NCBI GenBank assembly: GCA_049472355.1
Contig: JBLIRP010000025.1
Span: 1 to 42,813, forward strand
DNA from: a bacterium
GTDB taxonomy: Bacteria > SZUA-182 > DTGQ01 > JAFGSM01
Direction: 5' to 3'
Length of the DNA: 42,813 nt
The position numbers were made by a program, and so were the translations under genes. Every line of letters starts with the position of its first letter. Positions within the stretch are counted from its first letter, which is position 1. Positions 972 through 42,813 of this stretch are shown here, piece by piece. The notes beneath the pieces were generated by a model that ran no database searches, had not been told where the DNA came from, and was given only the letters and a program-made list of their open reading frames with translations.

Positions 972-989
972 CTGTGTATGGGAGCCGCG

Positions 990-5367: not shown

Positions 5368-5466
5368 TCCCTCCGCAAACGCTTCCGGGGTGACCCATGC
5401 CAGGTGAACAATGCCCGGCACATAGAATGGCAGGAATATCCGGGCACCTTCACGCATGGGGCAGGA

Positions 5467-6258
5467 TCAGCGTTGAAGCAGTCGCCCGGCATTCCCGGAC
5501 AGGATATCCTCCTTCGCCTTTTCAGGGATGGGGAGTGCCGCTATCTTTTTCACCTCCTCATCCTGCCGCTTCCAGGGGGAGTCCGTTGCAAAGAGGATCC
5601 TGTCGAAGCCGTGTTCCCTCATGATCCTCACCAGCCATGCCTGTTCCATGTGATCGATCACATAGGAGGTGTCAAGGAACACCCTTTTCCCCACCAGGTA
5701 TTGCTCAACCTCGTCCCAGCAATCATAGCCGCCCAGGTGAGCGGCGACGATGGTCATCGCCGGGAAGATATCGAGAACCCGGGCGATCCGCTGCGGGGTG
5801 CCATACATCGGGGGATAGAGGCCGATGTCCACGCCCGCATGGAAGAGGGCGATCATATCGTGCCTGATAAGGGCCTCATAGAGCGGGAAAACAGCCTCCT
5901 CATCCGGGTGGAAGCGTTGATAGTCGGGGTGAAGCTTCACCCCCCGGATGCCCAGCCCCTTGATCCTCCCGAGTTCCTCGTCGATCCCCTCGAACTGCGG
6001 GTGCAGGCTCCCGAAGGAGACGATCCGCTCGTCCTGTATGCCCAGCGCCCAATTGTTGATGGAGACAACCTGGGAGGGTGTGGTGGCGATAGGCTGATTG
6101 ACCGATACCGCAATCCCTGCCGCATCCATGGATCGCTTCAAATCGGCAACGGTGCCGTTCAAAAATGGCTTCACCCCCGCCTTCTCGGAGAGGAAGGCCA
6201 TGGTCTTTTCCGCAATGGCGTCGGGAAACACATGGATATGCATATCGATGATCTTCAA
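5467..6258 (-). CDS. Amidohydrolase family protein (Amidohydro_2-like)
   Basis: IDMHIH, GVKLHP, FHAG, VAAHLGG, LDTS and ILFATDSPW metal-binding motifs. Confidence 0.9.
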   Translation of the reverse strand: MKIIDMHIHVFPDAIAEKTMAFLSEKAGVKPFLNGTVADLKRSMDAAGIAVSVNQPIATTPSQVVSINNWALGIQDERIVSFGSLHPQFEGIDEELGRIKGLGIRGVKLHPDYQRFHPDEEAVFPLYEALIRHDMIALFHAGVDIGLYPPMYGTPQRIARVLDIFPAMTIVAAHLGGYDCWDEVEQYLVGKRVFLDTSYVIDHMEQAWLVRIMREHGFDRILFATDSPWKRQDEEVKKIAALPIPEKAKEDILSGNAGRLLQR

Positions 6259-7013
6259 CGGCCGTACTCTCCCTTCAGCACATACGAGAACCTGGTGAGA
6301 ATCCAGAGGACCTCGCTGAAAAACCGTTTAAGGGGCAGGGGTGTGGTGACGTATTCCACCCTCCCCGCCTTGATCGCCTCGATGACGCCGTCAACGGACC
6401 GCTCCCTGGCATATATGTACGAATAGGTGCTTGCGAAATCCTCCATCCGGTGGGCATCGGAGCACCCCACCATGGGGATGGAGAATCTCTTCGCCACCCG
6501 GACGGCGGTGCGATTCGGATTGAAAAAGCGGGTATAGAAGTGACAGTACTCGATGGCATCAAAACAGTCGATGTTCCGCACGAGCCTCCTGCCGAGGCAT
6601 ACCTGCCCCTTGTAAAAGGGATGGGGGGCGATCACCAGGCACTGTGGAAATAACCTCCGGTAATGCCTGAGGGCACGGAGACCTTCGATTGCCTCCGCAT
6701 GGGGGCAGTTGTATAAAAGCACATGCCGCCTGTCAAATGATCGTTCGATTCCCAGGACCAGGACAACGCCCTGTTCCTTTGCATGGGACCACACTGCGGG
6801 ATCATGGTAGAGGAAGTCGTGATAGGTGAGGGAGAGGACATCGAATCCCATCGATGCCGCCCGATCGATGAAGTCCGCCGGGGACATGTTCTGGGAGGTG
6901 ACACGGTCCTTCCACCGATCCCCCACGATGTGCGTGTGCAGGTCGCATTTGAGCTTGATGAATGATTCGTGCCCGCGATCGGATGGGACCTGTGTACGAT
7001 ATTCCGATTCCAC
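6255..7013 (-). CDS. PHP-domain metal-dependent phosphoesterase
   Basis: KCDLHTH, LTYHD, GIE, IAPHPF and GCSDAH motifs. Confidence 0.85.
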   Translation of the reverse strand: MESEYRTQVPSDRGHESFIKLKCDLHTHIVGDRWKDRVTSQNMSPADFIDRAASMGFDVLSLTYHDFLYHDPAVWSHAKEQGVVLVLGIERSFDRRHVLLYNCPHAEAIEGLRALRHYRRLFPQCLVIAPHPFYKGQVCLGRRLVRNIDCFDAIEYCHFYTRFFNPNRTAVRVAKRFSIPMVGCSDAHRMEDFASTYSYIYARERSVDGVIEAIKAGRVEYVTTPLPLKRFFSEVLWILTRFSYVLKGEYGR

Positions 7014-11750: not shown

Positions 11751-12920
11751 ATGAAGACCTTTGAGGAGATAAACGAGAAGATCAAGAAGGGCAAGGCGGT
11801 GGTGGTGACCGCCGAAGAGGTGATCCCCCTTGCCCGCACGAAGGGGATCAAGGCGGTGGCCGAAAAGGTGGATGTGGTCACCAGCGCCACCTTCGGGCCC
11901 ATGTGCTCTTCAGGGGTCTTTTTGAATTTCGGGCATGCGGATCCCCCGATCAAGATGAACCGGGTCCTGCTCAACGATGTTCCTGCCTATGCCGGGCTGG
12001 CGGCAGTCGATGCCTATCTGGGTGCGAGCTCCCTCTCCGAGAAGGAGGGGGCATTCTACGGAGGCGGTCATGTCATCGAGGACCTTGTTGCCAGGAGGAG
12101 GATACTGCTCAGGGCCGAAGGATACAAGACCGACTGCTATCCCCTCGAACGAATAGAGACCGTTATCACCCTTGATTCCATCAACCAGGCGGTGCTCTGC
12201 AACCCAAGGAATGCCTATCAAAATTACGGCGCCGCGACCAATTCCTCCTCGCGCACCCTTTATACCTATATGGGTCCCCTTCTGCCCCGGTTCGGTAATG
12301 TCTCCTATTCCACATCGAGCCAACTCAATCCGCTGATCAATGATCCTGAGTACCGCACAATCGGCCTGGGCAGCCGGATCTTCCTGGGCGGAGGTATCGG
12401 CCACATCATCGGTGAAGGCACGCAGCACAATCCTTCACAGATTCGGGACCAGAATCACATTCCCCTTGGCCCTGCGGCAACCCTTGCGGTCAAGGGTGAC
12501 CTCAAGCAGATGAGCCAGCGCTATCTGCGTGGCGCACGGATCAAGGGATACGGGGTGAGCCTTTTCGTGGGCATAGGTGTTCCCATCCCCATCCTGGACG
12601 AAGCAATGGCGGAGGCGGTTTCCATCGACGACGAACATATATTCACCACGATCTATGACTATGGGGTCCCCCGCAGGGAGAAACCATCGTATGGAAGGGT
12701 GCACTATGGACTGCTCAGGTCCGGCTTTGTGGAGTTGGACGGGAGACATGTACCCACAAATCCCCTATCCAGTTACGCGATGGCCCGCGAGATCGCCCAG
12801 ATCCTCAAGGAATGGATCAGCCGCGGGGAATTCTTCCTGGTCAAGCCGATCCAGCCGCTTCCCCGGAATGTCACCCTGATGCCAATGTCTCAGCACATTG
12901 CAGAGGATATCGATTCATGA
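11751..12920 (+). CDS. DUF39 homocysteine biosynthesis enzyme (aspartate-semialdehyde sulfurtransferase, MA1821/MJ0100 family), without CBS domains
   Basis: KTFEEINEKI..G.AVVVTAEE, VDVVTSATFGPMCSSG, AGLAAVDAYLGA, TDCYP, NPRNAYQNY. Confidence 0.9.
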   Translation: MKTFEEINEKIKKGKAVVVTAEEVIPLARTKGIKAVAEKVDVVTSATFGPMCSSGVFLNFGHADPPIKMNRVLLNDVPAYAGLAAVDAYLGASSLSEKEGAFYGGGHVIEDLVARRRILLRAEGYKTDCYPLERIETVITLDSINQAVLCNPRNAYQNYGAATNSSSRTLYTYMGPLLPRFGNVSYSTSSQLNPLINDPEYRTIGLGSRIFLGGGIGHIIGEGTQHNPSQIRDQNHIPLGPAATLAVKGDLKQMSQRYLRGARIKGYGVSLFVGIGVPIPILDEAMAEAVSIDDEHIFTTIYDYGVPRREKPSYGRVHYGLLRSGFVELDGRHVPTNPLSSYAMAREIAQILKEWISRGEFFLVKPIQPLPRNVTLMPMSQHIAEDIDS

Positions 12921-13327
12921 AGGTTTCCCGGAGGGTCATCCTTACATTTCCCGCCAGCCTTGCGGGAACGCCGGTCACCTACAAACTGGTCAAGGATTAC
13001 GATCTCATCATGAATATCCTGCGGGCCAAGGTGATTCCCAAGGATGAAGGCCGCCTTGTGCTGGAGCTCACCGGTGAGCAAAAGAACATCGAGGCGGGCC
13101 TGAATTTCATGAAGGAGCAAGGGGTGAAGGTCGAGGCCCTTGCCAAGGATATCCATCTGGACGAGGAGGCCTGTATCCATTGCGGCTTTTGCACGGCGGT
13201 ATGTTTTCAGGAGGCCCTTTCCATAAATCCGCAAAGCAACAAACTGGAGTTCAACCGCGAAAAGTGCGTCCTCTGTGAGCAATGCGTGGATATATGCCCC
13301 ATAGGGGTGATCCAGATAAAATTTTGA
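12917..13327 (+). CDS. NIL domain + 2[4Fe-4S] ferredoxin (MA1822-like partner of DUF39)
   Basis: ATGA overlap with DUF39; MNILRAKV (NIL); CIHCGFCTAVC and CVLCEQCVDICP. Confidence 0.9.
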   Translation: MKVSRRVILTFPASLAGTPVTYKLVKDYDLIMNILRAKVIPKDEGRLVLELTGEQKNIEAGLNFMKEQGVKVEALAKDIHLDEEACIHCGFCTAVCFQEALSINPQSNKLEFNREKCVLCEQCVDICPIGVIQIKF

Positions 13328-27371: not shown

Positions 27372-27868
27372 TGCAGGCTCCTTCCGGTCACCATGCCATG
27401 CTCATACCGCCATCGACGCGTAGTTGCACTACCCCATCCCATATCAGCGCATCCTATTAAATCACAAAAGCGATTCCCGGGCAAAACAGGGGTATGATCA
27501 TTCCTCAAAGACCCCGGAGTTCCTGCGCACATCGAAACGTCCCTTAACCGCCTGCTCAATGCATTGCACACATCGACCATACAGCGAGTGATTCCCCTCA
27601 GGTCCTTGAAACAATAAAGATATGCAAAGCATATTTCGCCGGACATACGGCATCCCCCGCCGGATCGGATTCGCAGGCTTGAACCGATTATTTGAGATGG
27701 GAAACAAAGTATTAAATAATAGAGACCGAAGAAAATTGCAGGTCTCGCGGAACCTTGCCGGCAATTCTCATGGTGAATCGTCAGGCAAGAGGCATGGGCA
27801 GACATTGAATAAACATGAGGGAGGGACGTTAACCAATGAACGTAACACCTCAAGGGGGAGGAACAGGC

Positions 27869-29578
27869 ATGATACGAATGAAGAACAACCTGGTTACGAT
27901 AACGTTGTGGTGGTGCCTTGGTGCCATGGCCGCCGTCATCATTGCCGGGGGATGCCGTACACGGATGAAGAAGGGGACCCTTGCCACGGTAAACGGCGAG
28001 GAGATATCCGCACACGAGTTCGTGGAATTCTATAACAGCCGCCCCAGGGTGGCTGACTGGACCTCACAAGGGGGGGCCCTCGATCCCGAGTCGGTCCTCG
28101 ATGCCCTGGTGGAAAAGATCCTGATGGAGCAGGAGGCGCGAAGAATGGGCCTGGCGTCCTCGCCGGTTCTCGCGGAGCAGGCGGAAAAATTCAAGCAGCG
28201 GGTCATGGTGAACGTCTTTATCCAGAAACGCTTCGATCCCCAGGTGCATATAACGGACCAGGAGGTCCTGGACAGCATCCCGGAATATCAGAAGAGGGAG
28301 GTCAAATTCGCCCGGATATGTGTGCTCGACGAGGATGAGGCATGGGAGATCAAGGGACTCCTTGATGAGGGGGATGATTTCACCCGGCTTGCCCGTTCGC
28401 GATCAATCGGCGTCGATGCCGCGCAGGGAGGGGTGGGTGATTTCCTGAGCCCCCATCGCGGGATCTACCCCAAGCAGGTCATTGAGACCATATTCACCCT
28501 GCCCATCGGCACCATAAGCGATCCACAGAAGGTCCGCGAAGGGTATGCGCTGTTCAAACCACTCGAGGAAAGACAGCTCAATCAAGGGGAGATGGAGCAG
28601 ATTGTACAGTATCACCGGAGCCTGCTCTTTCGGGAAAAGAAAAACGATCTCATACGGGACCTCCTTGAGGAGGCAAAACTGGAACGGGGGATCGGCATCC
28701 GCCGGGAGGCCCTGGAGCAAATCGCCTCAGGGGAGGTGATTTCCTCCCCCGCTTCATCGAACCTTGTCCTGGCGGATGGTGAGGGGATCACCATCACCTG
28801 GGGAGACATCAGGGGGATTATCCCCCAATCCCCTGCGCAGGGGGCAAAGGCATTGTGGGAGGATCCCAACCTGCTTGCAAACATGGTCGAGACCAGGCTG
28901 AATAAACAGCTCATGGTGCTCGAGGCGGAAAAGGCCGGATTTTCGGATGATCCCGATCTTGCCAAAGAGGTGCGACGATTCGAACAGGATCTCCTCGCCC
29001 GGCAGCTCATGATGTACGAAGTGGAAAGAAAGATCGTCGTTACCGACGAGGATTGCCGAAAATATTATCAGGAAAACCTTACCCGTTTTTCCGAGCCGGA
29101 GATGGTCAGGGCCGGCCACATCCTTGTGAAGGACAAAGCGAAGGCCGACGAGATCCTGTCAAAACTGAAGGACGGAGAGGATTTTGCCACACTCGCGGAG
29201 GCATATTCCGAATATCCGATAACATCCCGAAAGGGCGGGGACATGGGGTATATCAAATCAGGACAAAGCGGCATGGGAAGGGAATTCGAACGGGTTGCAT
29301 TTTCGCTCCCCATCGGAGCGATAAGCGAACCGGTGAATACCCCCTTTGGGTATCAGATCATAACCGTGACGGAGAAACAACCCAGCCGGGCCGTCCCCTT
29401 CGAAGAGGTCCGGGATTCGATACGAAAGGACCTTGTCAATCAGATGCGGAAATCCCTGTTTGATTCCTACCTGCAGGACCTTCGCAAAAAGGCGACGGTT
29501 GCCGTCAACCAGAAGCTATTCCAAACGATAAAGCACGACCTTGCAAAAACGGGTCCGGGGGGGCATGATCAGGTTTGA
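27869..29578 (+). CDS. PpiC/parvulin-type peptidyl-prolyl isomerase (PrsA/SurA-like foldase), two parvulin domains, probable lipoprotein
   Basis: Lipobox-like IAGGC, LATVNGEEI, F..LAR.RS..GG, HILVK..FATLAEAYS..KGGDMGY..F..P..TPFGYQII; ATG follows GGGGGAGG. Confidence 0.9.
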   Translation: MIRMKNNLVTITLWWCLGAMAAVIIAGGCRTRMKKGTLATVNGEEISAHEFVEFYNSRPRVADWTSQGGALDPESVLDALVEKILMEQEARRMGLASSPVLAEQAEKFKQRVMVNVFIQKRFDPQVHITDQEVLDSIPEYQKREVKFARICVLDEDEAWEIKGLLDEGDDFTRLARSRSIGVDAAQGGVGDFLSPHRGIYPKQVIETIFTLPIGTISDPQKVREGYALFKPLEERQLNQGEMEQIVQYHRSLLFREKKNDLIRDLLEEAKLERGIGIRREALEQIASGEVISSPASSNLVLADGEGITITWGDIRGIIPQSPAQGAKALWEDPNLLANMVETRLNKQLMVLEAEKAGFSDDPDLAKEVRRFEQDLLARQLMMYEVERKIVVTDEDCRKYYQENLTRFSEPEMVRAGHILVKDKAKADEILSKLKDGEDFATLAEAYSEYPITSRKGGDMGYIKSGQSGMGREFERVAFSLPIGAISEPVNTPFGYQIITVTEKQPSRAVPFEEVRDSIRKDLVNQMRKSLFDSYLQDLRKKATVAVNQKLFQTIKHDLAKTGPGGHDQV

Positions 29579-32500
29579 TCACAAAGGGCATAGTGTATCC
29601 GGTCGTCTTCATATGTCTCGGACTCTTCATCCTCATCTCATCTCCCGCCACTGCCGTTGACGGAGGCTCAGGCGACCCGGAGGGCGCCCACAACCAGATA
29701 CTGCCCGGGTACACGGACAAGGTTTGCGAGCGGTGTCATTTCTCAAGGAGCGGGAAAAAACCGAAGATCTGGGAAAAGATGCCCACTGGCGCGGAGACCG
29801 TCAAGGGCACCAAGGGGATGAGGACCATATGCCAGACCTGTCACTACCCCGGCAATGCAGTCAATGCACTCTCCGGTTTTACCCTGGACACCCATCCCAT
29901 GGGCGGTCACCGGTATACGCATGCCAACGTATTCGTCGATCAGACCGAATCCCGTCTCGGCGAAGACCACGTGATGCATGACTGGGCGGACCCTGATCCT
30001 GCAACAGGAAAACTCCCCAAGGCCCCCGATCCTGTGTTCCCGTTGAAGAAGCGGGACCAATGGGGGCATCCCGAGGCGGAGGGGGACACGGAGAACAAGG
30101 GATTCTACTGCGGTTCCTGTCACGATCCCCATCAACAACCGCATGCGAATACCAGCGGCCACGGTGATTACCTGCGGGTCGTGGAGGGCGGGAAGGTGGG
30201 AACATCAGGGGACCGAACCGCCTTTTGCCTTCAATGCCATCAGAATCTCCCGGAGCATCCCCAGCACGGCACGGATCTCGGGTGCCAGCGATGCCACCAC
30301 CCTCACGACGGGATCATACGGATCGAGGACAATCCCATACTCGGCCAGTGGATCCACACCAACTCCGTCATGCGCGCAAATTTCAGGGCGCTCCCCAATG
30401 TCCCCTCCTTCGGCAGACAGCAGGAGGGGATCGATGTGGACCCCTCCTCCATCTGCTACGGATGCCACCGCCAAAACCGTCCCCCTGAAATTGAGCAGTT
30501 GGGTGCGGCGATCATCCATGCCGATGACGCCGAAACCCCGCGGGAGCATCACCCCATGGGATCACAGGCGGTCATCGAAGGAAACGTCCATGTGACCCGG
30601 GTGGATCATCCCAGCCCTGAAGGCCAGATTACCTGTATTTCCTGTCATAACGGATTCCATGGGGGGAACCACCCCTATTACCTGAGGGAGGATTTTACCG
30701 AGGACAATGCGGTTTTTTGTTCCCTGTGCCATAGCGACAAGACGGCGGAGGGACTCGGAACGGTGAAGGGATCCGCGCACCGCCAGGTCTTCGGGAGGAG
30801 CCCCAATGGCAGGGGTGATTGCCTGTTCTGCCACTTCATCCACGACGGGGAGGACCAGGGGGCCGAATCTACGACCAGGCTCCAGGCGATCATCAGGATC
30901 ACCCCGATAAACCTCCAGTGGGGGCTGAAGGACGATGACCCGGACACCGGCGACTATGAGGACATATGCTATGGATGCCACGGCAATCCCCTGTATATGA
31001 AGGGTTCGGGTGCAGACGGGGCGCGGCTTCGTCCCGATTCGTTTGCCACCCATCCATTCTCGGGGAACATCCGTACGGCCAACCCCAGCGGCGATTTTTT
31101 GGTATCCGACGGCCCGGGGTTATGGGTGGGTAACGACTACGGTGTCCCTGCAGGTGAGCTGTTTTGCGGCTCCTGTCACACTATCCACCGGGCATCCAAC
31201 AGACCGTATCTACGGGGAAATGCATCTCCTTACAAAAACCAGGGATTCTGCGAGGGATGCCACACCGAGCAGCCCGCGGGCGGGATGTCGAGCCATCCCG
31301 TGGGCGTGCCCCCCAATCCGGACAAGACCCTGCAGGCGTTTCCCGCCCCTCTCTTCGGCGGGGGGAGCGGTGATCCACGCGGAATCACCCAGGGGAATAT
31401 CCCTGAGGGGGAGATCCTCTGCCTTACCTGCCACAGCGTGCATGCCGCCTCCACTACCCACAACGGTGACATCCTCGGCGAAACGGACCGGACGGACACG
31501 CAGGGCGGACACGGGCACCTGCTCGTTGCAGACAACCGTGAAACCGAGGAGGGGAGTGATCTGTGCCGCCTGTGTCATGAGTCTTTTTCCGCAATCTGCG
31601 AGTCACGACACGACTTCTCACACCTTGACATAGGGGAGACAGGTTCACGGGGGGTGTGCTCCGCCTGTCATACCCCCCACCGGACCAAGGACAAACTGCT
31701 CCTCTGGCCGCGCTCCCTGGCGGAGGAACGGGGCACGTTTTTCCATACCGACAAACCGGACTACGTTCCCGGCACAACCATATTCTGCTACGATTGTCAT
31801 GAGGATTACGCATCCACGGATAACGATCCCCCCCCCAATGTCTTCTTCAATCCCCCGCAGGATATCGCCTTCACCGATGGACCGGGGATCAGCACCAAGG
31901 TCGGCTACTACGACACCATACCACCCAACGAGGACCAGCCGCCGGTGGACGGCTCACCCACCGGAGGCCACTACATCAAGACAGAAAGCCTCTCAAAACT
32001 CAGGCATGGGATCGAAACAGGGGACAAGATCCCCTGCAGCCTGTGTCATGATCCCCATGGCCGCACCAAAAACCAGGCCTTCCTGGTGAATCCCCTGGGG
32101 GTCAATACCGTGGATAACCTGGAAACCAGCCGCCATACCAGAAACGGCACCGGCAACGGAAGGGCGATCTGCGCCTCCTGCCATGGATATGCGGAAAGGG
32201 ATGCCATCATCGGAATCCCTCTGAAGCTCTATGATTTTTATGTGCTGCAGACCTCCGAGAACAGGACCGAACATAAGAAGGACAGTGACACCCCGTGTAC
32301 GAGCTGTCACCTTCACAACCGGATAGTACCCGTCCAGAACCAGGCGCACCTCGTGCACCTCATCTCACCGCCGGAGACCGCCCAAACCGCGGACCGGCTC
32401 ATCCGCGCGAAGGGCATGATCGAGACGGAAAGGGGCATCGGCATCAGCACCTGTTCCGTGTGCCACCCCCCGGAGCTCGCCTACCAGATAGGAGACCTTA

Positions 32501-33651
32501 CCTTTGCGGACGAACAGCCTTTCGCAGGCACCAAGGTATGCCAGCCATGCCATAGCCAGGGAGGCAGCTACAACGGGGTATCGGATTCCCTCATCGGTGC
32601 GAAAAACAACTGGGAGTCGTCCCCGTATAATTCCAACGGCACCCTCAAACTGGGAAGGGAGAAATGGTGCGCGGGATGTCATGATGACGAGCCATCGAGA
32701 ATATGGTGGCCGGGCCTCGGGGCCCCCATTGTGGCACCCAATGTATGTGGTGAAGTCGTCGATCCTGTCGCGCAACCCGAGGGATACGGTTTCTTTCAGA
32801 CAGGTCACGGGCTCCCCCCCTATCTGGTCAACCCGGATTCGGGTAGACGCGGGGCCGGTCTTATCTGCACCGATTGCCATGATCCCGATATGCCCCACAT
32901 CAACATCAGTCGCTACAATGCAGAGGAGGCCAACTACCGGTCGGGCTTTCGCCTTCGAATGGTGAACGGCAAGGAGCCCATGGTGATTCCCCGCTGGCGC
33001 GACGAATACTGGTCAGGGGATTTCAACCTGTGCTATTCCTGCCACAATGAGGAGTCGATCATAGGCCTCGGATTCGGTTATCGCTACTACTCCACCAACC
33101 ACAATCCCTTCTTCCTGGTGGACACCGTGCAGACAGGATTCAAAAACGTGGACCTCCTGGGGCTGAACAGGCACAACACCACCAGGGGGCCGACCTTCGA
33201 ATTCGTCAATTATTTCCCCAGCAACAGCCACTGGAACCATCTGGCGATCCCCAATGCCCTGGTCACCCTCTCCGCACCCGCCGGAAGCGGTGGGGCCAGC
33301 CGGACGAACCGATGCACCGACAGCCGATGCCACAGCAAGATCGTTTGGGATTCCGACCGGGACGGATGGCTGGACTCCCGCCCCTCCTGTACGGCATGCC
33401 ATAATCCCCACGGAACCAAGCACACGGCCATGACCAGGAACGATCTTGCCATCACCCATGACAAAGACGGGGCGGACTGGACATACGGGTATATAGGGAC
33501 CGGCAACTACGGCCTTTTCGGCAACGAAGGCGACGACCTTTACTGCGGTGAATGTCATGCCGGGCTCATGCGCTTCGGCGTGAGCAACTACAAATACTAC
33601 CGGAAACCATGGGACGAGGAAGACGAGGTACCTCCCCTGCCTCCCGGTTGA
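29575..33651 (+). CDS. Large multiheme cytochrome c (26 CxxCH + 1 CX4CH by manual count)
   Basis: TTG start overlaps the foldase stop; Sec signal peptide; CxxCH motifs counted in the translation. Confidence 0.93.
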   Translation: MITKGIVYPVVFICLGLFILISSPATAVDGGSGDPEGAHNQILPGYTDKVCERCHFSRSGKKPKIWEKMPTGAETVKGTKGMRTICQTCHYPGNAVNALSGFTLDTHPMGGHRYTHANVFVDQTESRLGEDHVMHDWADPDPATGKLPKAPDPVFPLKKRDQWGHPEAEGDTENKGFYCGSCHDPHQQPHANTSGHGDYLRVVEGGKVGTSGDRTAFCLQCHQNLPEHPQHGTDLGCQRCHHPHDGIIRIEDNPILGQWIHTNSVMRANFRALPNVPSFGRQQEGIDVDPSSICYGCHRQNRPPEIEQLGAAIIHADDAETPREHHPMGSQAVIEGNVHVTRVDHPSPEGQITCISCHNGFHGGNHPYYLREDFTEDNAVFCSLCHSDKTAEGLGTVKGSAHRQVFGRSPNGRGDCLFCHFIHDGEDQGAESTTRLQAIIRITPINLQWGLKDDDPDTGDYEDICYGCHGNPLYMKGSGADGARLRPDSFATHPFSGNIRTANPSGDFLVSDGPGLWVGNDYGVPAGELFCGSCHTIHRASNRPYLRGNASPYKNQGFCEGCHTEQPAGGMSSHPVGVPPNPDKTLQAFPAPLFGGGSGDPRGITQGNIPEGEILCLTCHSVHAASTTHNGDILGETDRTDTQGGHGHLLVADNRETEEGSDLCRLCHESFSAICESRHDFSHLDIGETGSRGVCSACHTPHRTKDKLLLWPRSLAEERGTFFHTDKPDYVPGTTIFCYDCHEDYASTDNDPPPNVFFNPPQDIAFTDGPGISTKVGYYDTIPPNEDQPPVDGSPTGGHYIKTESLSKLRHGIETGDKIPCSLCHDPHGRTKNQAFLVNPLGVNTVDNLETSRHTRNGTGNGRAICASCHGYAERDAIIGIPLKLYDFYVLQTSENRTEHKKDSDTPCTSCHLHNRIVPVQNQAHLVHLISPPETAQTADRLIRAKGMIETERGIGISTCSVCHPPELAYQIGDLTFADEQPFAGTKVCQPCHSQGGSYNGVSDSLIGAKNNWESSPYNSNGTLKLGREKWCAGCHDDEPSRIWWPGLGAPIVAPNVCGEVVDPVAQPEGYGFFQTGHGLPPYLVNPDSGRRGAGLICTDCHDPDMPHINISRYNAEEANYRSGFRLRMVNGKEPMVIPRWRDEYWSGDFNLCYSCHNEESIIGLGFGYRYYSTNHNPFFLVDTVQTGFKNVDLLGLNRHNTTRGPTFEFVNYFPSNSHWNHLAIPNALVTLSAPAGSGGASRTNRCTDSRCHSKIVWDSDRDGWLDSRPSCTACHNPHGTKHTAMTRNDLAITHDKDGADWTYGYIGTGNYGLFGNEGDDLYCGECHAGLMRFGVSNYKYYRKPWDEEDEVPPLPPG

Positions 33652-33724
33652 TGAGGCCCGCCCTTCATCGATTCGTTACGTGAAGATTTTCAACTAATCA
33701 CCTGTTTTTAAAACCTCCCATCCT

Positions 33725-33860
33725 TGATGGCCTCACAAAAAGTCGTCAAGCCTGTCACTCCGGCGAAGGCCGGAGTCCAGAAGTCCTTGAAAAGACTTGA
33801 TTCCGTGTCAAGCACGAAATGACGGAATAGGATGGAAATCGACTTTTTACGATTCCATCA
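33725..33860. mobile_element. MITE / REP-like palindromic element with terminal inverted repeats
   Basis: TIR TGATGGcctcacAAAAAGTCG / CGACTTTTTacgattCCATCA (17/21 match); internal hairpin ACTCCGGC-GAAG-GCCGGAGT; flanked by the direct repeat TCCT. Confidence 0.75.
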
Positions 33861-33969
33861 TCCTTCGTTATGATCAAAAAATCACGGTGGTTCATCTGAA
33901 AATAATTCAACAAGCCTTTGTTTTATTTATTTTAATCCTTCGTTGTGATCGATAGATCATGGCGGTTTA
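33860..33969. repeat. 35-bp degenerate direct repeat, 75-bp period, with TGAT-N6-ATCA cores
   Basis: ATCCTTCGTTATGATCAAAAAATCACGGTGGTTCA and ATCCTTCGTTGTGATCGATAGATCATGGCGGTTTA. Confidence 0.65.
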
Positions 33970-34386
33970 GCGGAACGGGCCGTGAGGATCATGGAGGGAT
34001 ATCCTGCATGATCATATTATACAATATTGCATATAGAATGCATATTATTGCAGAACAATACAACATTCCCCTGCCCCGGCCCCTTTTGTCCCTGTAACCG
34101 AATCCCCTTGAAATTCGTGTCATATACCATGGCTCAACCTCCTCCGGCAAAAAATGATCAATGCTGATCAGTGACTAAACAGCAGTGTCCCTGTGCACGC
34201 TTGTTCCTGGTGCATGATCCCCCATACAGGGGGAGATATGGCGAAGACTCCCTATCACCCCTCACCCCCGGCAATGCCTTCACCCCTTGCCCCTCCCTCC
34301 CGTCCGACCCTGCGCCGAGCTTCGTGTACTCGTGGGCGATTGACATGTGACTCCCATGCACGGACAAACGTTCCGGGTGTGCATCA

Positions 34387-34402
34387 TGGTATTTGTTTTG
34401 CA
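34387..34402 (+). promoter_or_regulatory. Possible sigma54 promoter
   Basis: TGGTAT-TTGTT-TTGCA (GG-N10-GC). Confidence 0.45.
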
Positions 34403-34610
34403 TGTTATCCACACGGATGGGGACATATGCAACACTAATTAAATTAAATATATTTTTGCTGTATTAATTTGTTTATTTGCAGGCAGGTGCAAGGACAAAC
34501 GCCCCGGATTGCCGGGCAGTGTTCGATGCGGGGCTGGGAGGGGGGCTCATCCATTATCACTATCGAAATAATTAATATTAAAATAATTAATAAGTTAGGA
34601 TGGTCTTAAC

Positions 34611-34639
34611 TTGAAGTCTGTTCACAAAATTACTATAAT
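34611..34639 (+). promoter_or_regulatory. sigma70 promoter of the giant cytochrome
   Basis: TTGAAG-N17-TATAAT preceded by an AT-rich UP-like tract. Confidence 0.65.
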
Positions 34640-34713
34640 GAGATACTTTAATCGAAACCATTTCCCGACGATGGGAATGATACTGCACAGGTGTATCTGA
34701 AAACAAAAAACTC

Positions 34714-37700
34714 ATGCCATATACAATATCAGATCGCAGCGCACCACGATGTGCCACGCTTACCCTCGTGGTTACCTGTCTTCTCTTGTTTTTTTGCGCA
34801 GTAAACACATACGCCATAACCGGGCCTCACGGGGATGAGAGAATCAAGAGCCCGAAAGGGGTATGCGCCACGTGTCACATCCCCCACAGATCGAAGGGTC
34901 CCAAGATATGGGCAAGGACCAGCAAGAAGCCCGGGCTCTATGACGGCATCCACCAACTGTGTGCAACCTGTCACGATGGTACCATGTTCTTCAAGGGGGA
35001 CGCCGTGTCCGGCGGTGAAGTCTTCATGGTCGACGGATACCAGTCAGGCGGTTATTCCCCGGCCAACGAATATGAAGGGGTTTTCACCGTGGACACCGGA
35101 CCGGACGGTGAACCGGAGGTCTATGCAAGCACCGGCACCGACGATGTCATGGACGAGATGGAGGGGGGTTCCTCCACCGACGGCCCCTTTGAGAACCATG
35201 TCATGCACGGAGGGGCTGATGTAGGCCTCGACGATGCACTTATCTACTTCGATTCAGAGGTATTTCCCCTCGATCCCACGGACAGGGACACCTATCCCCA
35301 GGGGCCTGGTCTTGAACACTATCAGTCAGGAGGGGCCGGGGTTTACTGCGGCACCTGCCATGATCCCCATAATCAGCCGGATGAGCGTAAATCCGGCGGA
35401 TTCTACCTGCGAACTCGGCCCGGCCACAAAGTGGGTGATCCCTGGTACAACCGGAAGCCCTTCTGTGCCCAATGCCACGGGGAGATTCACGCCCCCGAGT
35501 CGGATTGCCTGGCCTGCCACCATCCCCACCTGGGAAGGACGATGATCAAGGATAACGAGACCCTCGGCAGAAAGATCTTCCTGTTTCCGGTGGAGGAGAG
35601 GCCATTCATCGCCACGCCCAATGTGCTCTCGATAAACGATACCGGCGACGACGAATGGTCGGCCGCCCTGTGCTACGGATGTCATAACGGTATCCAGGGA
35701 AACCTGTGGACACAGGCAGGGGCGGTTCCCATCTGCGGCGAGGACATCACCGATGATTCCAGGGAACACCACCCCATGGGCACCCAGGCATGGCTGGGTG
35801 ACGGCTCCAAGGTATACAACGGCCTTTTTATCCGGGCACCGGGAACCCCGGCGGAGTTCCTCAACAAGAACGGGGGGCTTACCTGCACCAGTTGTCACGA
35901 CGGATTTCACGGCCCGGGGCCCTATACCGGGACGGGGGCCAAGGGGAAGAACAAGCGAAACAACTTCCTGCGCTGGCACTTCGCCAATCCGGACGGCGCC
36001 GGTGAACCCCAGAGCACGGACCCCTCGGAGGACAGCGCCGACTTTTGCATCGCATGCCATTCGGACAAGAGCGCATCCATGCTTGATGGCAGGCATCTGC
36101 ACACGAGGTCGGAGGCCTATGCACGGAATGTCACGAGGCTGACCTTCATGGCCGACCCGAACGGGAGTGCGAGCGAAACCGAAGTGGGATGTGCGAATTG
36201 CATGTTCTGCCATTTCATCCACGACGGCACGGAGCGGCAGAAGACGAGCACCAGCGAATCCCTGGAGACCCTGGTGATCCGTCCGGATGTGGATTCCCTG
36301 ATGCGCATCGCCCCCCTCAACCTGGCATGGGGAGAGCACCTTGATAACACCGATCCCTTCGATTACGAAGACCTTTGCTACGGATGCCACGGTGATCAGG
36401 CCATCGTGGGAGAGCTGGGGGCAGGGTCGCTGCTCAGACCCGAGGAATACTACACCCACCCCTTTACCGTGGAACCCCAGATCTTCATCGACCCGAACTC
36501 CTTTCCCGTGTCCGACGGGGGGGAGAACGGGGTGACCGATGACTACGGCGCCCAGCAGGGGGAGATATTCTGCGGAACATGCCATGACGTGCATACAGGG
36601 GCGAACCGCCCCTACCTCAGGTCCCAACGCTCCCCCTATGAGGCCAATGGCTTCTGCGAGGGGTGCCATGACCAGGATGGGTTCCTCTCTACAAGCCATC
36701 CCATAGACCGGGGCCCCAATCCCGATCCACAAAACGGACCGGTCACCGCCGAAACCTTCGAAGACACGCTGTGGGGGAACGGCCCGGTCTTCTCCTCCGG
36801 CGGAAGCGGGAACCCGGGAGGGATCACCGCCCCCTACGATGCGGCGCAATCCTCCTCCCTGCTCGGAACAAAGGGGAGGGTCATCTGCCTTACCTGTCAC
36901 AACACCCATGCAGCGCGCACCTCACGAAAGGGTGAAGTGCCCGGTGATTCGAGCATGGTGCACGGGAAGCTCCTGGTGATGGACAACTTCCCCACCAACT
37001 CGACGGAGCCGGGGGACGAGCTGTGCAGGGCATGCCATGATCGCAGCATCTTCCCCATCAACGGTCCTCACCGGGAAGATCTTGCATCCTATGAAGAACG
37101 GGGCATCTGCCACAACTGCCATGTACCCCATCGCGCGCAGTCCGAATCCAAGCTATGGGCCATAGACCTGCCGGGGACCTTCGATGGGGTGCACGATATG
37201 TGCAACAGTTGCCACAATCCCCTGGACTCCTCGACCGTATCCGGGCAGGGGAACGTCTTTTCGAAGGGGCAGTATGAAAATCATGTGATGTTCGGCGGAG
37301 CGGTCATCACCACCGGGGAATGCCCGGAGGCCCCCAGTTTGAGACTCATAGGGGATGTGAACACCGCCATCTTCCCCCTCGATCCCAACGACTGGGACAC
37401 CATCCCCGATAAGGACGACGGAAGTTACTGCAATCGCTCCACCTTCAGCTACCGGGAAGGGGGTGAGGGATTTTACTGCGGCACCTGTCATAATCCCCAC
37501 AACGATCTCTCGGAGGACCCGAACGGTTACGGCGACTACCTCAGGGCAAAGGATTCCTCATGGATAGGGGGGGCCGGTAAGAGAAAGCCCTTCTGTATCC
37601 AGTGCCACGGTGAGATCCATGCACCCGGCAGCGATTGCCTCGACTGCCATCACCCCCACCAGGGGAAGACCCTCATCGAGGATGACGAGCGTATAGGCCG

Positions 37701-40700
37701 GCTGATTCTCTCCCAATTCTCGGTGGTTGCCACCGCGTTCACCGCCCTCCCCAATGTTCCCGAGATAACGGATGACCCGAATGACACCAACCCATCGCAA
37801 TTCTGTTATGCGTGTCACAATCCCGATGCGGGGGGAAGTGCCGGCATACCGGTCATATACGGTGACGATACGGGGGATGAAAGAAGGGAGCACCATCCCA
37901 TGGGTACCCAGGCCAGCGTCACCGACACGGAGAAGGTGAAGGATGGGGTATTTATCAGGGCGCCGGGGACGCCTCCCCAATTTCTCAACAATAACAAGCA
38001 GCTCACCTGTACCTCCTGTCACGACGGTCTGCATGGGCTTGGCCCCTTCGTGGGACTGGGTGAGCGGGAGAAGAGCAAGGCGAATTCCTTCCTGCGCTGG
38101 GTCCTCAACGACGGGGAGGACCGGGACAAGCCCGACTTCTGCCTGGCGTGCCATTCCGACAAGACCCCCTTTACCCATGAGGGAAGGCACATGGTGTCTC
38201 CGGCAGAGTCGCCGAACGGGCGGGGGGGATGCATGTTCTGCCACTTTGTCCACGACGGGGATGAGCGCCAGACCGACCCCATCCAGGGGATCGGCATACG
38301 CACCGACCTGGATGCCCTCATGAGGGTACCCTCTCTCAACCTGGTGTGGGGCGACCGGCAGGGGGACACCGACATCTTCGACTATGAGGATCTCTGCTTC
38401 GGCTGTCATGGGACCCAGGCCATTGTGGGCGGCACCGGCGGCGCCGGGGCGCTGATCGATCCGAACGTCCATTTCACCCATCCCTTCACCCTGGTCCCCG
38501 ATGCGGATATCATCGGGGAGGGATTCCCCGTAGCGGACGGCACAGCCATGACCATCCACGACGACTACGGCACAGAGAACGGCCATATGTACTGCGGCAC
38601 CTGCCACGACGTGCACGACAACCGGACCGCACCCTACCTGGGGACCCATCCCTCGCCGTATACGACCAAGGGCCTGTGTGAGGCATGCCATGATGCGGAC
38701 AGCGAGTTCGTACCGGCCAGTCACCCGGTCGGGGTCGGACCGAATCCCGATCCCTCGGACGGCGCACCCACCCCAGCCGCCTTTGCGGACACCTTTCACG
38801 GAGGCGGCCCGCTCTTCTCACAGGGGGGAAGCGGAAGACCGGGCGGCATTACCTATCCCTTCAATGCAACTACCGGCCAGTCCACCTTGGGCGGCAAGGG
38901 CGCGGTGATATGCCTGACCTGCCACAACACCCATGCCGCCGCAACCTCGTGGGAAGGCACAACCAAGACAGATGCGAGAGAGGACCATGGCTACCTCCTG
39001 GTCAAGGATAATTTCGTCGAACGCAGCACCCTCAGCCCGGGAAGCGAGTTGTGCAAGGCCTGCCATCCATTCGGGGATACCGAGTATGACTTCCCCTCAG
39101 GGGATCACGGAGGCGGTGGACTCTCCGGGGCCGAATGGGGGATCTGCAATGCCTGCCATACCCCTCACGGCGCAGTCGGACCAAAGCTCTGGTCACGCCC
39201 CGGCTACGGGGCAGGTCCCTTCCAGGGCTTCCGCCAACTCTGCTTCACCTGTCACAACCTCGCGGGCATCGCCAAGACCGGCGCGGAGTCCGTCTTCAAA
39301 AAGGCCCTCCCCGGAGGACAGATACCGGGCGATTACCTGGAGGACCATGTGATGCGAAACTGGGCGGACATTGATGGAGTGGCCTACTACGATCCCAACA
39401 CCTTCCCCCGCGATCCATCCGATCATGACGCCATCCCCACGGGGCCGAAGCCCCAGCCCGATCCCCATGACGGCTTCTACTGCGGGTCCTGTCACAACCC
39501 GCACCTCCAGCAGGGCGATGCCTACCTGCGCAGCAGGGGCGGGAACGCCGGGTACCCGGGCAAGCGCGAGGACTTCTGCAACGACTGCCATATCGACGCC
39601 CACTTCCAGGATCAGGATGACGGGTGCCTCTTATGCCACAATCCCCACCAGGGCGGGACACGCATAGAAGAGGACCCCAATGTGGGACGGCTCATCCTGA
39701 TCGTGGATTTCAGGGCGCGAACCTTTACCGCCGAGCCCAATGTGGACGGGTTCACCGGCGGTGACGTCAGTTCGACCTGCTACGGATGTCACGGTCCGTC
39801 CGAGTCCGACCCGAACAGCATCTCCTGGGAGAACCTTGGCGCCACCTGCATCTACGGCGATGACGCCGCTACCGTGGAAGACGCCGATTCCCAGGCCCGC
39901 CGGAGGGGGAAGACACTGACCTATCCCCCCAGGGACCACCACCCCATGGGCAGGCAGGCCCGGTTCGGCCAGTGCCCCAGGGCCCCCGGTGCGGACCGGA
40001 GCCTCTTCAACAAAAACGGGGAGCTGACCTGCACCTCCTGTCATTCGGACAACCATCAAGGCGACCGGGGAAACAACTTCCTGCGCTGGGACTTTGCCAA
40101 AGACAACAGTCACTTCTGCCTGCGGTGCCATCCCAATAAGCAGGAGACCAAGCTCGGGCCTCTCGGCGGGGGCCACCACCAGACCTGGGAGACCAGCCCG
40201 GTCACCAGGGTGGTTCGCACACTGGCGACACAAAACGGGAAAAAGACGGTAACACCGATCACGGTCAGGTGTGGAAACTGCATGTTCTGTCACTTCATCC
40301 ATGACGGCGAGGACCAGGGGGACACACCGACCCCGGGGGTGAAGACCCTGATGCGGATCAGCCCGGTGAACCTGCGATGGGGGGACGCATGGCAGGATGA
40401 CGATTCCCTGGATTACGAGGACCTCTGTTACGGTTGCCACAGCAGGGAACGGATCGTCGGAGGGGTGGGGAGTCTGGGGGCGCTGATCGTTCCTCCTCTG
40501 GAACTGGGGCCGGAGGCTGCAGCCGATCCCATTCTGGGCAGGAGATTCAGTCATCGATTCAGGTGCGAGCCCAACCCGGCGAGCCCGACCTCGATCAGGC
40601 TCAGATCGGCAAACCCGGTGTTCCCGTTGTCGGACGGAACAGGGGAGATGGTGGTGGATGATTACGGCACCCAAGCAGGGCGTCTCTACTGCGGCACCTG

Positions 40701-42546
40701 CCACGACGTACACACATGGGCGGCAAACCCCGGAACCAAATACCTCAGGGGCCTGACCTCCCCCTATGCGCCCGGCGGGGGTTTCTGCCACGAGTGTCAC
40801 AGCGCCGATCCCGCGCCGAGCGTCTGCACCCCCGCCGTCAACCATCGCCTTGCACCGGCACCCGAGGGGATCATCTCCGTGGTTGAATGGTCTCCACTTT
40901 TGTTCAGCAATGTTGACCCCGGAATGGCCCGCGGCAAGGGAGAAAAGGGGGGGTATGTCGCGGCGCCCACCGGCCTTTCTCCCAGCGTGGGGCAGATGAC
41001 CTGCCTCACCTGCCACAATATCCATGCGGCGGAAACCACCTATGACGGTCAGGTCGCCGGACCGCAATCCGACGAATCGGTCCTGGTGGACGGAAGGCAC
41101 GGAAAGCTGCTGGTCATCGACAACGGTCACGGACCGGCAGGAAGCGACCTGTGCATCAACTGCCATCCCGATCATTCGCAGATCGTCGGGTCCGCCCACG
41201 ACTTCTCCCACCGGGGTCTGGACGGCCTGGGCGGAGGGATTGCCACCAAGGGGATCTGCTCCGCATGCCACAGCCCCCACCTGGCCCCCGGTGAAAAGCT
41301 CCTGTGGGTCCGTTCCATGGCGGAAGAGCGGTTGACCTTCGGGGCTGCGCCCGGTTTTGCCCTGGGATCGACCATATACTGCTATGATTGCCATTCGGGC
41401 ATCGTATGTGATGCGAACCCGCCGCCCGAGCTATTCCTCCCCTTCCCGCCCCAGGACGTGGCCTTCGTGGATGGACCGGGAGGGCTTATCGCAGGCTACT
41501 ACGAAAACGTGCCCGCCTATGTCCAGGACATACCGCCGCACCGCCTCCCCTCGGGGATGCCGACGGAGATCAAAACCGCGGGACACTTCGTGCGGCAACC
41601 CATACTCACCCCGGGCATTTCCCAGAACGATAAACTGGCCTGCAATGACTGCCACAATCCCCACCGGGGGATCACCAAGGAAGGAATCCCCAACCAGGCC
41701 TTTATCAAGGCGATCCTGGGGGGAAAACCCATGGGCCCCTACAAGGCGAGCATCAACATGGCCTATCACCCGGAGACCAGGGACAACCTGGAGAGCAGGC
41801 AGGCGTGTGTGGCCTGTCACGGGCTCGCCGAGCGGACCAATGCCCCCATCTACGCCCCGACCACCTTCACGAACGTCAATCCGCTCTATACGAGCGCCTT
41901 GCTCCTGGCCAGGCCGCCCAAAACCGTATACGAGCATTTCGATGCAGGCATCTATGCCTGCACGGATTGCCATCGACACAACAGGGCCATGGTCCTGTGC
42001 ATCGATTGCCACGGCTACCCCCCCACCAGCGTCGGCAATGGTTGGATGGGACCCGGGGATACCGACCAGAATTATAAAGGAGGTGCGGGGGCGCACTACA
42101 CGCATGTAGTGGAACACCAGTTTGTCTGCACCATGTGCCACAAGGGCTGTCTCCACGACCCGGGAGGCGCCACGGTGGTAAACCCCTCCTTCAAGAGGGC
42201 GAAGGTGAGCATCGACTTCGATACATCCTATGCATTCCCCAGGTCCTCGGGTGAGTTCCAGACCAAAATGGGATACTATGGCACGGACGGGAAGGCCATT
42301 ATCCCGCCGATCTATGATCCCATCAAACAGACCTGCTATGTGGGATGCCACAATCCGCTGGTGGGCGATCCCGACGATATTCCGAACCTGAACAATCCCA
42401 CACCGGCCTGGTCATTGCAGGCGGCGCAGGCGCCGACAGCGCCGACCTATCCAGGGGGATCCAGCACACCCACCTGGATAACGGTGAGGATACCCTATGT
42501 GATTCCGGGAGTGCTTCCTGGTACCTGGCAGATACCGGGGCTCTAA
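34714..42546 (+). CDS. Giant modular multiheme cytochrome c (49 CxxCH + 1 CX3CH by manual count)
   Basis: Signal peptide ending NTYA; three tandem 14-heme modules, a 5-heme module, a C-terminal CHGYPP..GAH..H domain and a Pro/Thr-rich tail. Confidence 0.95.
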   Translation: MPYTISDRSAPRCATLTLVVTCLLLFFCAVNTYAITGPHGDERIKSPKGVCATCHIPHRSKGPKIWARTSKKPGLYDGIHQLCATCHDGTMFFKGDAVSGGEVFMVDGYQSGGYSPANEYEGVFTVDTGPDGEPEVYASTGTDDVMDEMEGGSSTDGPFENHVMHGGADVGLDDALIYFDSEVFPLDPTDRDTYPQGPGLEHYQSGGAGVYCGTCHDPHNQPDERKSGGFYLRTRPGHKVGDPWYNRKPFCAQCHGEIHAPESDCLACHHPHLGRTMIKDNETLGRKIFLFPVEERPFIATPNVLSINDTGDDEWSAALCYGCHNGIQGNLWTQAGAVPICGEDITDDSREHHPMGTQAWLGDGSKVYNGLFIRAPGTPAEFLNKNGGLTCTSCHDGFHGPGPYTGTGAKGKNKRNNFLRWHFANPDGAGEPQSTDPSEDSADFCIACHSDKSASMLDGRHLHTRSEAYARNVTRLTFMADPNGSASETEVGCANCMFCHFIHDGTERQKTSTSESLETLVIRPDVDSLMRIAPLNLAWGEHLDNTDPFDYEDLCYGCHGDQAIVGELGAGSLLRPEEYYTHPFTVEPQIFIDPNSFPVSDGGENGVTDDYGAQQGEIFCGTCHDVHTGANRPYLRSQRSPYEANGFCEGCHDQDGFLSTSHPIDRGPNPDPQNGPVTAETFEDTLWGNGPVFSSGGSGNPGGITAPYDAAQSSSLLGTKGRVICLTCHNTHAARTSRKGEVPGDSSMVHGKLLVMDNFPTNSTEPGDELCRACHDRSIFPINGPHREDLASYEERGICHNCHVPHRAQSESKLWAIDLPGTFDGVHDMCNSCHNPLDSSTVSGQGNVFSKGQYENHVMFGGAVITTGECPEAPSLRLIGDVNTAIFPLDPNDWDTIPDKDDGSYCNRSTFSYREGGEGFYCGTCHNPHNDLSEDPNGYGDYLRAKDSSWIGGAGKRKPFCIQCHGEIHAPGSDCLDCHHPHQGKTLIEDDERIGRLILSQFSVVATAFTALPNVPEITDDPNDTNPSQFCYACHNPDAGGSAGIPVIYGDDTGDERREHHPMGTQASVTDTEKVKDGVFIRAPGTPPQFLNNNKQLTCTSCHDGLHGLGPFVGLGEREKSKANSFLRWVLNDGEDRDKPDFCLACHSDKTPFTHEGRHMVSPAESPNGRGGCMFCHFVHDGDERQTDPIQGIGIRTDLDALMRVPSLNLVWGDRQGDTDIFDYEDLCFGCHGTQAIVGGTGGAGALIDPNVHFTHPFTLVPDADIIGEGFPVADGTAMTIHDDYGTENGHMYCGTCHDVHDNRTAPYLGTHPSPYTTKGLCEACHDADSEFVPASHPVGVGPNPDPSDGAPTPAAFADTFHGGGPLFSQGGSGRPGGITYPFNATTGQSTLGGKGAVICLTCHNTHAAATSWEGTTKTDAREDHGYLLVKDNFVERSTLSPGSELCKACHPFGDTEYDFPSGDHGGGGLSGAEWGICNACHTPHGAVGPKLWSRPGYGAGPFQGFRQLCFTCHNLAGIAKTGAESVFKKALPGGQIPGDYLEDHVMRNWADIDGVAYYDPNTFPRDPSDHDAIPTGPKPQPDPHDGFYCGSCHNPHLQQGDAYLRSRGGNAGYPGKREDFCNDCHIDAHFQDQDDGCLLCHNPHQGGTRIEEDPNVGRLILIVDFRARTFTAEPNVDGFTGGDVSSTCYGCHGPSESDPNSISWENLGATCIYGDDAATVEDADSQARRRGKTLTYPPRDHHPMGRQARFGQCPRAPGADRSLFNKNGELTCTSCHSDNHQGDRGNNFLRWDFAKDNSHFCLRCHPNKQETKLGPLGGGHHQTWETSPVTRVVRTLATQNGKKTVTPITVRCGNCMFCHFIHDGEDQGDTPTPGVKTLMRISPVNLRWGDAWQDDDSLDYEDLCYGCHSRERIVGGVGSLGALIVPPLELGPEAAADPILGRRFSHRFRCEPNPASPTSIRLRSANPVFPLSDGTGEMVVDDYGTQAGRLYCGTCHDVHTWAANPGTKYLRGLTSPYAPGGGFCHECHSADPAPSVCTPAVNHRLAPAPEGIISVVEWSPLLFSNVDPGMARGKGEKGGYVAAPTGLSPSVGQMTCLTCHNIHAAETTYDGQVAGPQSDESVLVDGRHGKLLVIDNGHGPAGSDLCINCHPDHSQIVGSAHDFSHRGLDGLGGGIATKGICSACHSPHLAPGEKLLWVRSMAEERLTFGAAPGFALGSTIYCYDCHSGIVCDANPPPELFLPFPPQDVAFVDGPGGLIAGYYENVPAYVQDIPPHRLPSGMPTEIKTAGHFVRQPILTPGISQNDKLACNDCHNPHRGITKEGIPNQAFIKAILGGKPMGPYKASINMAYHPETRDNLESRQACVACHGLAERTNAPIYAPTTFTNVNPLYTSALLLARPPKTVYEHFDAGIYACTDCHRHNRAMVLCIDCHGYPPTSVGNGWMGPGDTDQNYKGGAGAHYTHVVEHQFVCTMCHKGCLHDPGGATVVNPSFKRAKVSIDFDTSYAFPRSSGEFQTKMGYYGTDGKAIIPPIYDPIKQTCYVGCHNPLVGDPDDIPNLNNPTPAWSLQAAQAPTAPTYPGGSSTPTWITVRIPYVIPGVLPGTWQIPGL

Positions 42547-42689
42547 CATGAAATGATCGGAGAGGGAAGGATTATGCTAATGGGCTATACAAAAAAAACG
42601 GCGATATGGCGTGACGTCCATACCGCAATGATTTCAGGGGAAGGGGAATAATGACCGCCGACGTGAAGACGAACCGGAGGTGCACTCGA

Positions 42690-42813
42690 ATGCACACGTT
42701 TACCCTGATGGCGTGTATTTCACTCCTTTTCTGCCTCCTGCTGCCCGGGGCACGTATCCTCGACGCACAGGGAACGCGGGAGAGGACCTCTCCCCCCAGA
42801 AGCTGTACAGGCT
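42690..42813 (+). CDS. Start of a secreted protein, probably another cytochrome c (truncated by the window end; alternative in-frame ATG at 42651)
   Basis: GGAGG RBS; MHTFTLMACISLLFCLLLPGARILDAQ signal peptide; ends S-C-T-G plus a T base, compatible with CTGCH. Confidence 0.5.
   Translation, partial: MHTFTLMACISLLFCLLLPGARILDAQGTRERTSPPRSCTG

Follow-up and report, generated by a model that had tools for sequence, protein, structure and literature searches.

A 14-heme module made of OmcE-like tetraheme units in giant multiheme cytochromes encoded near an Rnf cluster

The window analyzed here, 42,813 nucleotides of contig JBLIRP010000025.1 from the genome of an uncultured, sediment-type bacterium (assembly GCA_049472355.1; GTDB lineage SZUA-182, DTGQ01, JAFGSM01), ends in an operon encoding two giant multiheme cytochromes, A and B, and the start of a third, C. 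A and B share a module with 14 heme-binding sites. By sequence comparison, this module is three tetraheme units resembling OmcE followed by a half unit, and probably not a new fold. We consider it probable that A and B are Sec-exported heme wires, bis-histidine throughout, in which OmcE-type tetraheme units are fused in one chain. The features of the three genes are as follows.

29575-33651, plus strand: cytochrome A, 1358 amino acids (aa), with a signal peptide
29683-31590, plus strand: module A1 (14 hemes)
29725-30240, plus strand: unit U1 of module A1, hemes 1 to 4
30283-30732, plus strand: unit U2 of module A1, hemes 5 to 8
30820-31263, plus strand: unit U3 of module A1, hemes 9 to 12
31420-31578, plus strand: half unit U4 of module A1, hemes 13 and 14
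31615-32316, plus strand: 5-heme block of A
32422-33648, plus strand: 7+1-heme tail of A
34714-42546, plus strand: cytochrome B, 2610 aa, with a signal peptide
34822-37050, 37066-39078 and 39103-41178, plus strand: modules 1, 2 and 3 of B
41215-41979, plus strand: 5-heme block of B
42651-42813, plus strand: start of cytochrome C, 54 codons in the window, cut at the contig end

Each full unit carries the four CxxCH motifs of OmcE and its four extra histidines, with the order kept. OmcE was the best solved match for every unit by sequence, and it was also the best solved match for both structure models, but with weak Z scores; in the structure alignments, module and OmcE were 16-22% identical. 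U1 aligned over positions 44-220 of the OmcE structure 7TFS and U2 over positions 44-231 (E value 1.8e-10), and the match of U3 to 7TFS was limited to its last two hemes (E 6.9e-7). The repeat has a period of four hemes, with a histidine after each odd heme. The histidines before odd hemes are 89-100% conserved, and those after odd hemes occur in 55-57 of the 57 rows, the exception being the position after heme 1 in A orthologues. This histidine pattern fits a bis-histidine wire. The earlier note on this DNA had not recognized the module as a named family; indeed, no named family covers the whole of it, but the unit is not new, the module being 3.5 OmcE-like tetraheme units.

Motif counts bore out the layouts that the note had given for the two proteins. 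A contains 26 CxxCH motifs and one CxxxxCH, arranged as 14+5+7+1, and B contains 49 CxxCH motifs and one CxxxCH, arranged as 14x3+5+2+1; in shuffled sequences (1000 shuffles each), CxxCH appeared on average 0.16 times for A and 0.23 times for B, with maxima of 2 and 3. The four module copies, one in A and three in B, are 40-52% identical in pairwise comparison, and all 15 of the conserved landmark patterns tested from the note were found in every copy. Between A and B, the 5-heme blocks share 38% identity (E 5e-38). The first four hemes of the A block matched a U1 profile (E 6.7e-13), by which the block opens with another OmcE-like unit. B ends, after its 2+1-heme tail, in a stretch rich in proline and tryptophan. 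The guess at a third cytochrome was right, since the window codons of C match the first residues of a 520-aa, 9-heme cytochrome at locus L005 with 98% identity. RNA-library assemblies (four of the six runs listed) contained a 206-nucleotide contig (X3) identical to B at 39978-40183 and a 175-nucleotide contig (X2) lying on B at 39928-40102 with 3 differences, with DNA carry-over possible for both; the remaining pieces were short chance matches or a repeat element.

The module is reused, as the note had proposed, both as free-standing 14-heme proteins (loci L012, L014, L021, L022, L024 and L025) and in fusions with one, two or three copies. In the profile search that the note had suggested, here with the 9-heme half, matches came from 12 of 12 genomes in the order of the window's genome (in one case to a fragment), from 1 of 7 others in the class, and from none of 21 beyond the class. 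Among the best 56 loci of a species-genome scan, 21 carried the module and 35 were weak matches. A search of 1.84 billion protein representatives returned 1749 matches at E 0.001, the first 24 spanning about 330-645 profile positions and most later ones 50-170; among the matches listed, the module ranges over one order and one sister family. Heme number is constant in A orthologues, at 26. B orthologues carry either three modules and 49 hemes (the window, L005, L006 and L014) or one module and 21 hemes (L011, L013, L015, L017 and L018) before the same 7-heme tail, and the length scaling claimed in the note is therefore real. The window's own genome (3.49 Mb, 87.5% complete) has 36 open reading frames with at least three CxxCH motifs, 420 motifs in total, and three further module genes, encoding 28-heme and 24-heme proteins on contig C136 and a 60-heme protein on contig C92. 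The two C136 genes sit in a stretch bounded by NHL propeller genes and a gene for a surface protein. The first of these cytochromes exists in a one-module version in L012 and L025 and in a two-module version in L001 and L009.

Expansion of the module probably took place at the joint between hemes 5 and 6 rather than at the module edge, because the two halves group differently in trees and partial modules start or stop at F-x-A-x-P-N-V, a break at this joint. In FastTree trees built without beta pieces shorter than 300 aa or alpha pieces shorter than 150 aa, and with same-named free-module rows of L021 and L022 merged to one each, the 9-heme half of one-module B grouped with the corresponding half of the third module of three-module B (support 99), and the 5-heme half of one-module B did not group with the third module of the window. 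Positions 39033-39633 of the window are 88-96% identical in DNA to the final 600 bp of the C92 gene, and the regions upstream are 57-76% identical, which suggests recent exchange or an assembly error. The C92 protein itself (G000, C92:11990-21787, minus strand; L002) has 3257 aa and 60 hemes, with 17 N-terminal hemes, immunoglobulin (Ig) and MopE-type domains and shuffled module halves, and it ends exactly at the heme 5/6 joint.

The genes around A and B bear on how the chains would be folded, exported and connected. Those in the window are the following.

27836-29578, plus strand: PPIC-type peptidyl-prolyl isomerase (PPIase), SurA/PrsA-type, 580 aa (Pfam Rotamase and SurA_N)
33724-33861, no strand: palindromic element of 138 bp, like a repetitive extragenic palindrome, in the A-B intergenic region; present 21 times in the genome
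25707-26180, minus strand: cyt4, a free tetraheme cytochrome of 157 aa
18125-23220, minus strand: rnfCDGEAB, transcribed away from the cytochrome operon

A second repeated intergenic element of about 80-90 bp (17 matches) lies between A and B at 33889-33978. The stop codon of the PPIase gene and the start of A share 4 nucleotides. The PPIase gene is upstream of A in L005, L011, L013, L015, L017 and L020, two genes intervening in L078, and its product is probably a folding chaperone for the cytochromes. The order PPIase-A-B-C-D occurs in L005, L006 (with two genes inserted before A), L011, L013, L015 and L017, D being cut by the locus end in three loci. D, which follows C in relatives, is a protein of about 1200 aa with FN3, Big_1 and invasin D3 domains; at L006:16636-20181, it ends in a biotin/lipoyl-like domain behind FN3 and Ig domains. 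The upstream regions of B, the PPIase gene, cyt4 and the LPG-synthase gene yielded no sigma-54 promoter motif.

The porin, NHL or secretion partners that the note had suggested looking for among the downstream genes were not found there. In the relatives' loci, the PPIase-A-B-C-D operon has no barrel, propeller or secretion gene, and in the window's genome barrel and propellers are found on contigs C80 and C136. The part of a C80-encoded 12-heme protein that carries no hemes is similar to D, and the gene for this protein shares a cluster with those for 25- and 16-heme cytochromes, a PPIase, NHL propellers and a putative outer-membrane barrel protein of 537 aa. This barrel is present in 12 of 13 module-bearing relatives and in 0 of 6 class relatives lacking the module, genomes that are kin and not independent. 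The C80 cluster as a whole (G000, C80:2877-27403; L003 and L004) is porin-cytochrome-like, with 13-, 8-, 16-, 25-, 12-, 7-, 3-, 5- and 6-heme cytochromes, propellers, the PPIase, three small proteins (one with a weak LpoB match) and the barrel-like protein. For its hexaheme protein the PDB gave no match at E 0.01, and the protein is therefore not called OmcS.

A peptide at the C terminus may connect A and C to D. The last 9 aa of A read D-x-x-P-P-x-P-P-x and resemble an FN3 leader. The pattern D-x-x-[APS]-P-x-[PAS]-P-x ends 12 of 13 A orthologues, a similar C terminus is found in 8 of the 8 C orthologues listed (six unrelated pattern matches were set aside), and of 2701 long reading frames in the genome only A has the pattern at its C terminus. 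In the C80 protein the same peptide precedes an FN3 domain, and the initial FN3 domain of D lacks it. The peptide may dock in trans on D, or it may be a relic of gene fission.

The note had placed the giant cytochromes next to Rnf. That adjacency is conserved, but A and B are on the opposite strand and six genes away: the PPIase gene, an LPG-synthase-family gene, the tetraheme cytochrome gene, rpiB, glyA and a dCMP deaminase gene lie between rnf and A. The block cyt4-rpiB-glyA-dCMP deaminase-rnfCDGEAB, in which cyt4 comes first and, unlike A and B, shares the orientation of rnf, is divergent from PPIase-A in five of the seven order relatives read far enough (G005, G008, G009, G011 and G012, not G006 and G007). 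Cyt4 is linked to rnfC in 4 of the 6 module-free relatives of the class as well, and this linkage thus predates the module. Cyt4 has an OmcE-like histidine pattern, with 7TFS as its best PDB match (E 0.0056); it is present in 19 of 19 class relatives, at 75-86% identity in the five order relatives read, and one homologue of 38% identity bears the label Candidatus Schekmanbacteria. In sister families, two or three tandem copies of cyt4 share a single frame (G015:C33 and G016:C127). At L076:13430-18999 (family f3), the rnf operon continues into genes for precorrin-2 dehydrogenase, CcsB, HemA, HemC and CobA/HemD, a layout that puts heme supply beside giant cytochromes. The window's genome encodes the acetyl-CoA synthase (ACS) protein CdhC, NiFe hydrogenases, two cytochrome c assembly proteins and LpxC; a search of this genome found no DsrA over the cut-off.

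If A and B are fused OmcE-type wires, the histidine that OmcE subunits lend one another in a filament would be lent within the chain. Each module would contribute about 11-12 nm of insulated wire, giving 14-15 nm in A and 35-39 nm in B. The PPIase would fold the chains, the outer-membrane beta-barrel encoded on C80 would let them out, and D would hold them once exported; electrons would pass along them between the cell and a mineral, humic matter or a partner cell. An alternative that we find unlikely, though it deserves to be weighed, keeps the OmcE-like fold and places A and B in the periplasm or on a face of the outer membrane, as electron stores or membrane-to-membrane links serving Rnf and the hydrogenases, with no extracellular wire. 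The operon's lack of a barrel or secretion gene and its divergence from the cyt4-rnf block agree with such a location, as does the length of A and of one-module B, about 14-15 nm and so near the 17-nm periplasm quoted in PMC11492766. A three-module B, however, would measure 35-39 nm if linear. Relatives of the A tail in other phyla are fused to beta-helix, RCC1, thrombospondin, discoidin and Ig domains, that is, to surface-type domains; D is an FN3/invasin-type protein, and the barrel is codistributed with the module. These points count against this alternative.

It is improbable that the likeness to OmcE is driven by heme motifs alone, A and B being generic doubled-CXXCH chains of the MtrA/DmsE kind with large insertions and a four-heme period that does not reflect homology. 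The Pfam and NCBIfam matches of A and B are generic only (doubled-CXXCH, c7, c3 and MtrC-domain): 100.8 and 147.7 bits for PF09699 (doubled CXXCH; cut-off 20.6), 81.5 and 85.7 bits for TIGR01905 (cut-off 25.2), and scores over the cut-off for PF14522 (c7), but by summed hits. The more specific TIGR03508 (DmsE) gave 71.3 and 41.5 bits, far under its cut-off of 192.2. Alignments to two OmcE proteins (7TFS and 9YUQ) ran over the whole length, and unit windows in phase with the four-heme period scored best. U1 with its motifs masked still matched a family of tandem-tetraheme cytochromes (E 2.8e-9), a match at which DmsE-like controls failed, and the only PDB matches of that family were 7TFS and 9YUQ.

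The ends of the chains suggest distinct roles for the members of the family. In OmcE and OmcS, one heme receives its second histidine from the adjacent subunit (PMC9473688; PMC13712944), and in OmcS the heme so served is the fifth of six, the penultimate one (PMC6584659). None of the 12 A orthologues whose start is intact has the histidine after heme 1 (there were 13 rows, of which one is truncated), and it is missing at 7 of 7 A loci, but it is present in 40 of 40 other module starts. We take this histidine, three residues after heme 1, to be the inter-subunit donor. In free paralogues, as in OmcE, the signal peptide is followed by xxGPH and the chain stops 1-8 aa past the last CxxCH. Together, these features suggest tip, anchor and polymerizing roles: if the assumed donor is right, the free members would be able to polymerize, A would have a blunt start, and B, with a spare histidine and a capped end, would show the "anchor" pattern proposed in PMC13712944. 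A complex prediction of the last half unit of a free paralogue with its first two hemes, four hemes included, scored 0.25 against a mark of 0.32, the controls not having been folded.

A bolder proposal, which we regard as quite unlikely to hold in full, is that the genes of this lineage specify a full nanowire kit, its ends included. The free 14-, 24- and 28-heme paralogues, with a spare N-terminal histidine and an unsatisfied last odd heme, would polymerize head to tail; B would be an anchor or terminator whose length is set by one or three modules; A would be a blunt end; and A and C would dock on D, an FN3/Ig stalk, through the C-terminal peptide that would complete its leaderless first FN3 domain. 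Should this be true, it would supply the tip and anchor cytochromes listed as missing in work on OmcE, and would do so from a Wood-Ljungdahl/Rnf bacterium of an uncultured order.

That A is instead a redox enzyme or terminal reductase, in which the missing histidine after heme 1 in all A orthologues or the atypical CxxxxCH and CxxxCH hemes of the tails would give an open catalytic heme fed by the chain, is highly improbable, as A and B have no CxxCK motif and no enzyme family of Pfam or NCBIfam above cut-off, and a chain end that has lost this histidine does not necessarily have an open site, because the lent ligand of OmcS serves the neighbor's penultimate heme.

Three other parts of the window may be recorded. 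A RuBisCO-like protein with a fused C-terminal cupin domain is encoded at 944-2812 (plus strand); a NosD-like beta-helix protein, followed by a 340-aa open reading frame with no match in Pfam or NCBIfam, at 4252-6426 (plus strand); and a homocysteine biosynthesis (HcyBio) gene, followed by a NIL-ferredoxin gene, at 11751-13327 (plus strand).

How OmcE-type nanowires start, end and attach is posed as an open question in the Discussion of PMC13712944. The present family supplies natural fused, capped and open-ended versions of the unit, and a sequence rule predicts whether a protein can polymerize, terminate or cap, from whether it has the histidine after heme 1 and whether its chain stops at the last heme or carries a cap. 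Wire length and wire ends may thus be set by genes. A single-gene wire of set length, at about 11-12 nm per module, would be simpler to express and measure than a polymer. The family also suggests that electron exchange outside the cell is a core trait of an uncultured order that has Wood-Ljungdahl ACS, hydrogenases and Rnf.

A literature search, with most subscription papers outside its coverage, found no description of the module or of fused OmcE-type chains. Among known systems, multiheme cytochromes linked to Rnf include MmcA of Methanosarcina and DhcA of Desulfovibrio. The likeness to these lies in cyt4, a multiheme gene heading the block that holds rnfCDGEAB; the differences are that three housekeeping genes separate cyt4 from rnfC and that A and B belong to a divergent operon not cotranscribed with rnf. 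With the decahemes MtrA and DmsE, A and B share doubled-CXXCH motifs, as their scores for PF09699 and TIGR01905 reflect, but they fall far under the TIGR03508 cut-off, their heme spacing is much wider, and no porin adjoins them. The dodecaheme GSU1996 and the 27-heme Geobacter wire cytochromes are likewise single-chain wires, with a proposed origin by concatenation of modules (PMC11492766); GSU1996 is described as built from c7 modules, whereas the period here is four OmcE-like hemes and not the three of c7. Closer are the tandem-tetraheme cytochromes P0025-P0048 (one from Deltaproteobacteria bacterium, HHL39433.1), in which OmcE-type units follow head to tail in one chain with a heme spacing of about 38/30/55/42 and whose homology to U1 and U3 extends past the motifs. 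They repeat a single unit in similar copies, whereas the module here is a fixed, diverged super-repeat of 3.5 units that also occurs free. They form a separate family with 24-48 hemes, many members having Y-K-Y-(F/Y)-H at the end.

The nearest relative of known structure is OmcE itself (Geobacter sulfurreducens 7TFS; D. soudanensis 9YUQ), whose unit is described as four CxxCH motifs plus four conserved extra histidines (PMC13712944). The units of A and B have these eight features (apart from the histidine after heme 1 in A), in the structure models a coil-rich fold, and sequence similarity over the tetraheme domain (in U3 over the last two hemes only); the start and end of the free paralogues are also OmcE-like, and propellers and a barrel are encoded in the window's genome. 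OmcE gene clusters encode large beta-barrels and beta-propeller lipoproteins, and the window's operon has neither. The available text of PMC13712944 describes 5-heme OmcE-like proteins and does not use the words "tandem" or "fused". OmcE is a single polymerizing tetraheme subunit of about 200 aa, whereas here 3.5 diverged units make up a module of 600-810 aa that is repeated one to three times and capped by a tail, in chains of 1358 aa (A) and 2610 aa (B). A and B are not members of the OmcE family as defined, and their added interest lies in the free, fused and capped forms of its unit, from which predictions about wire ends follow.

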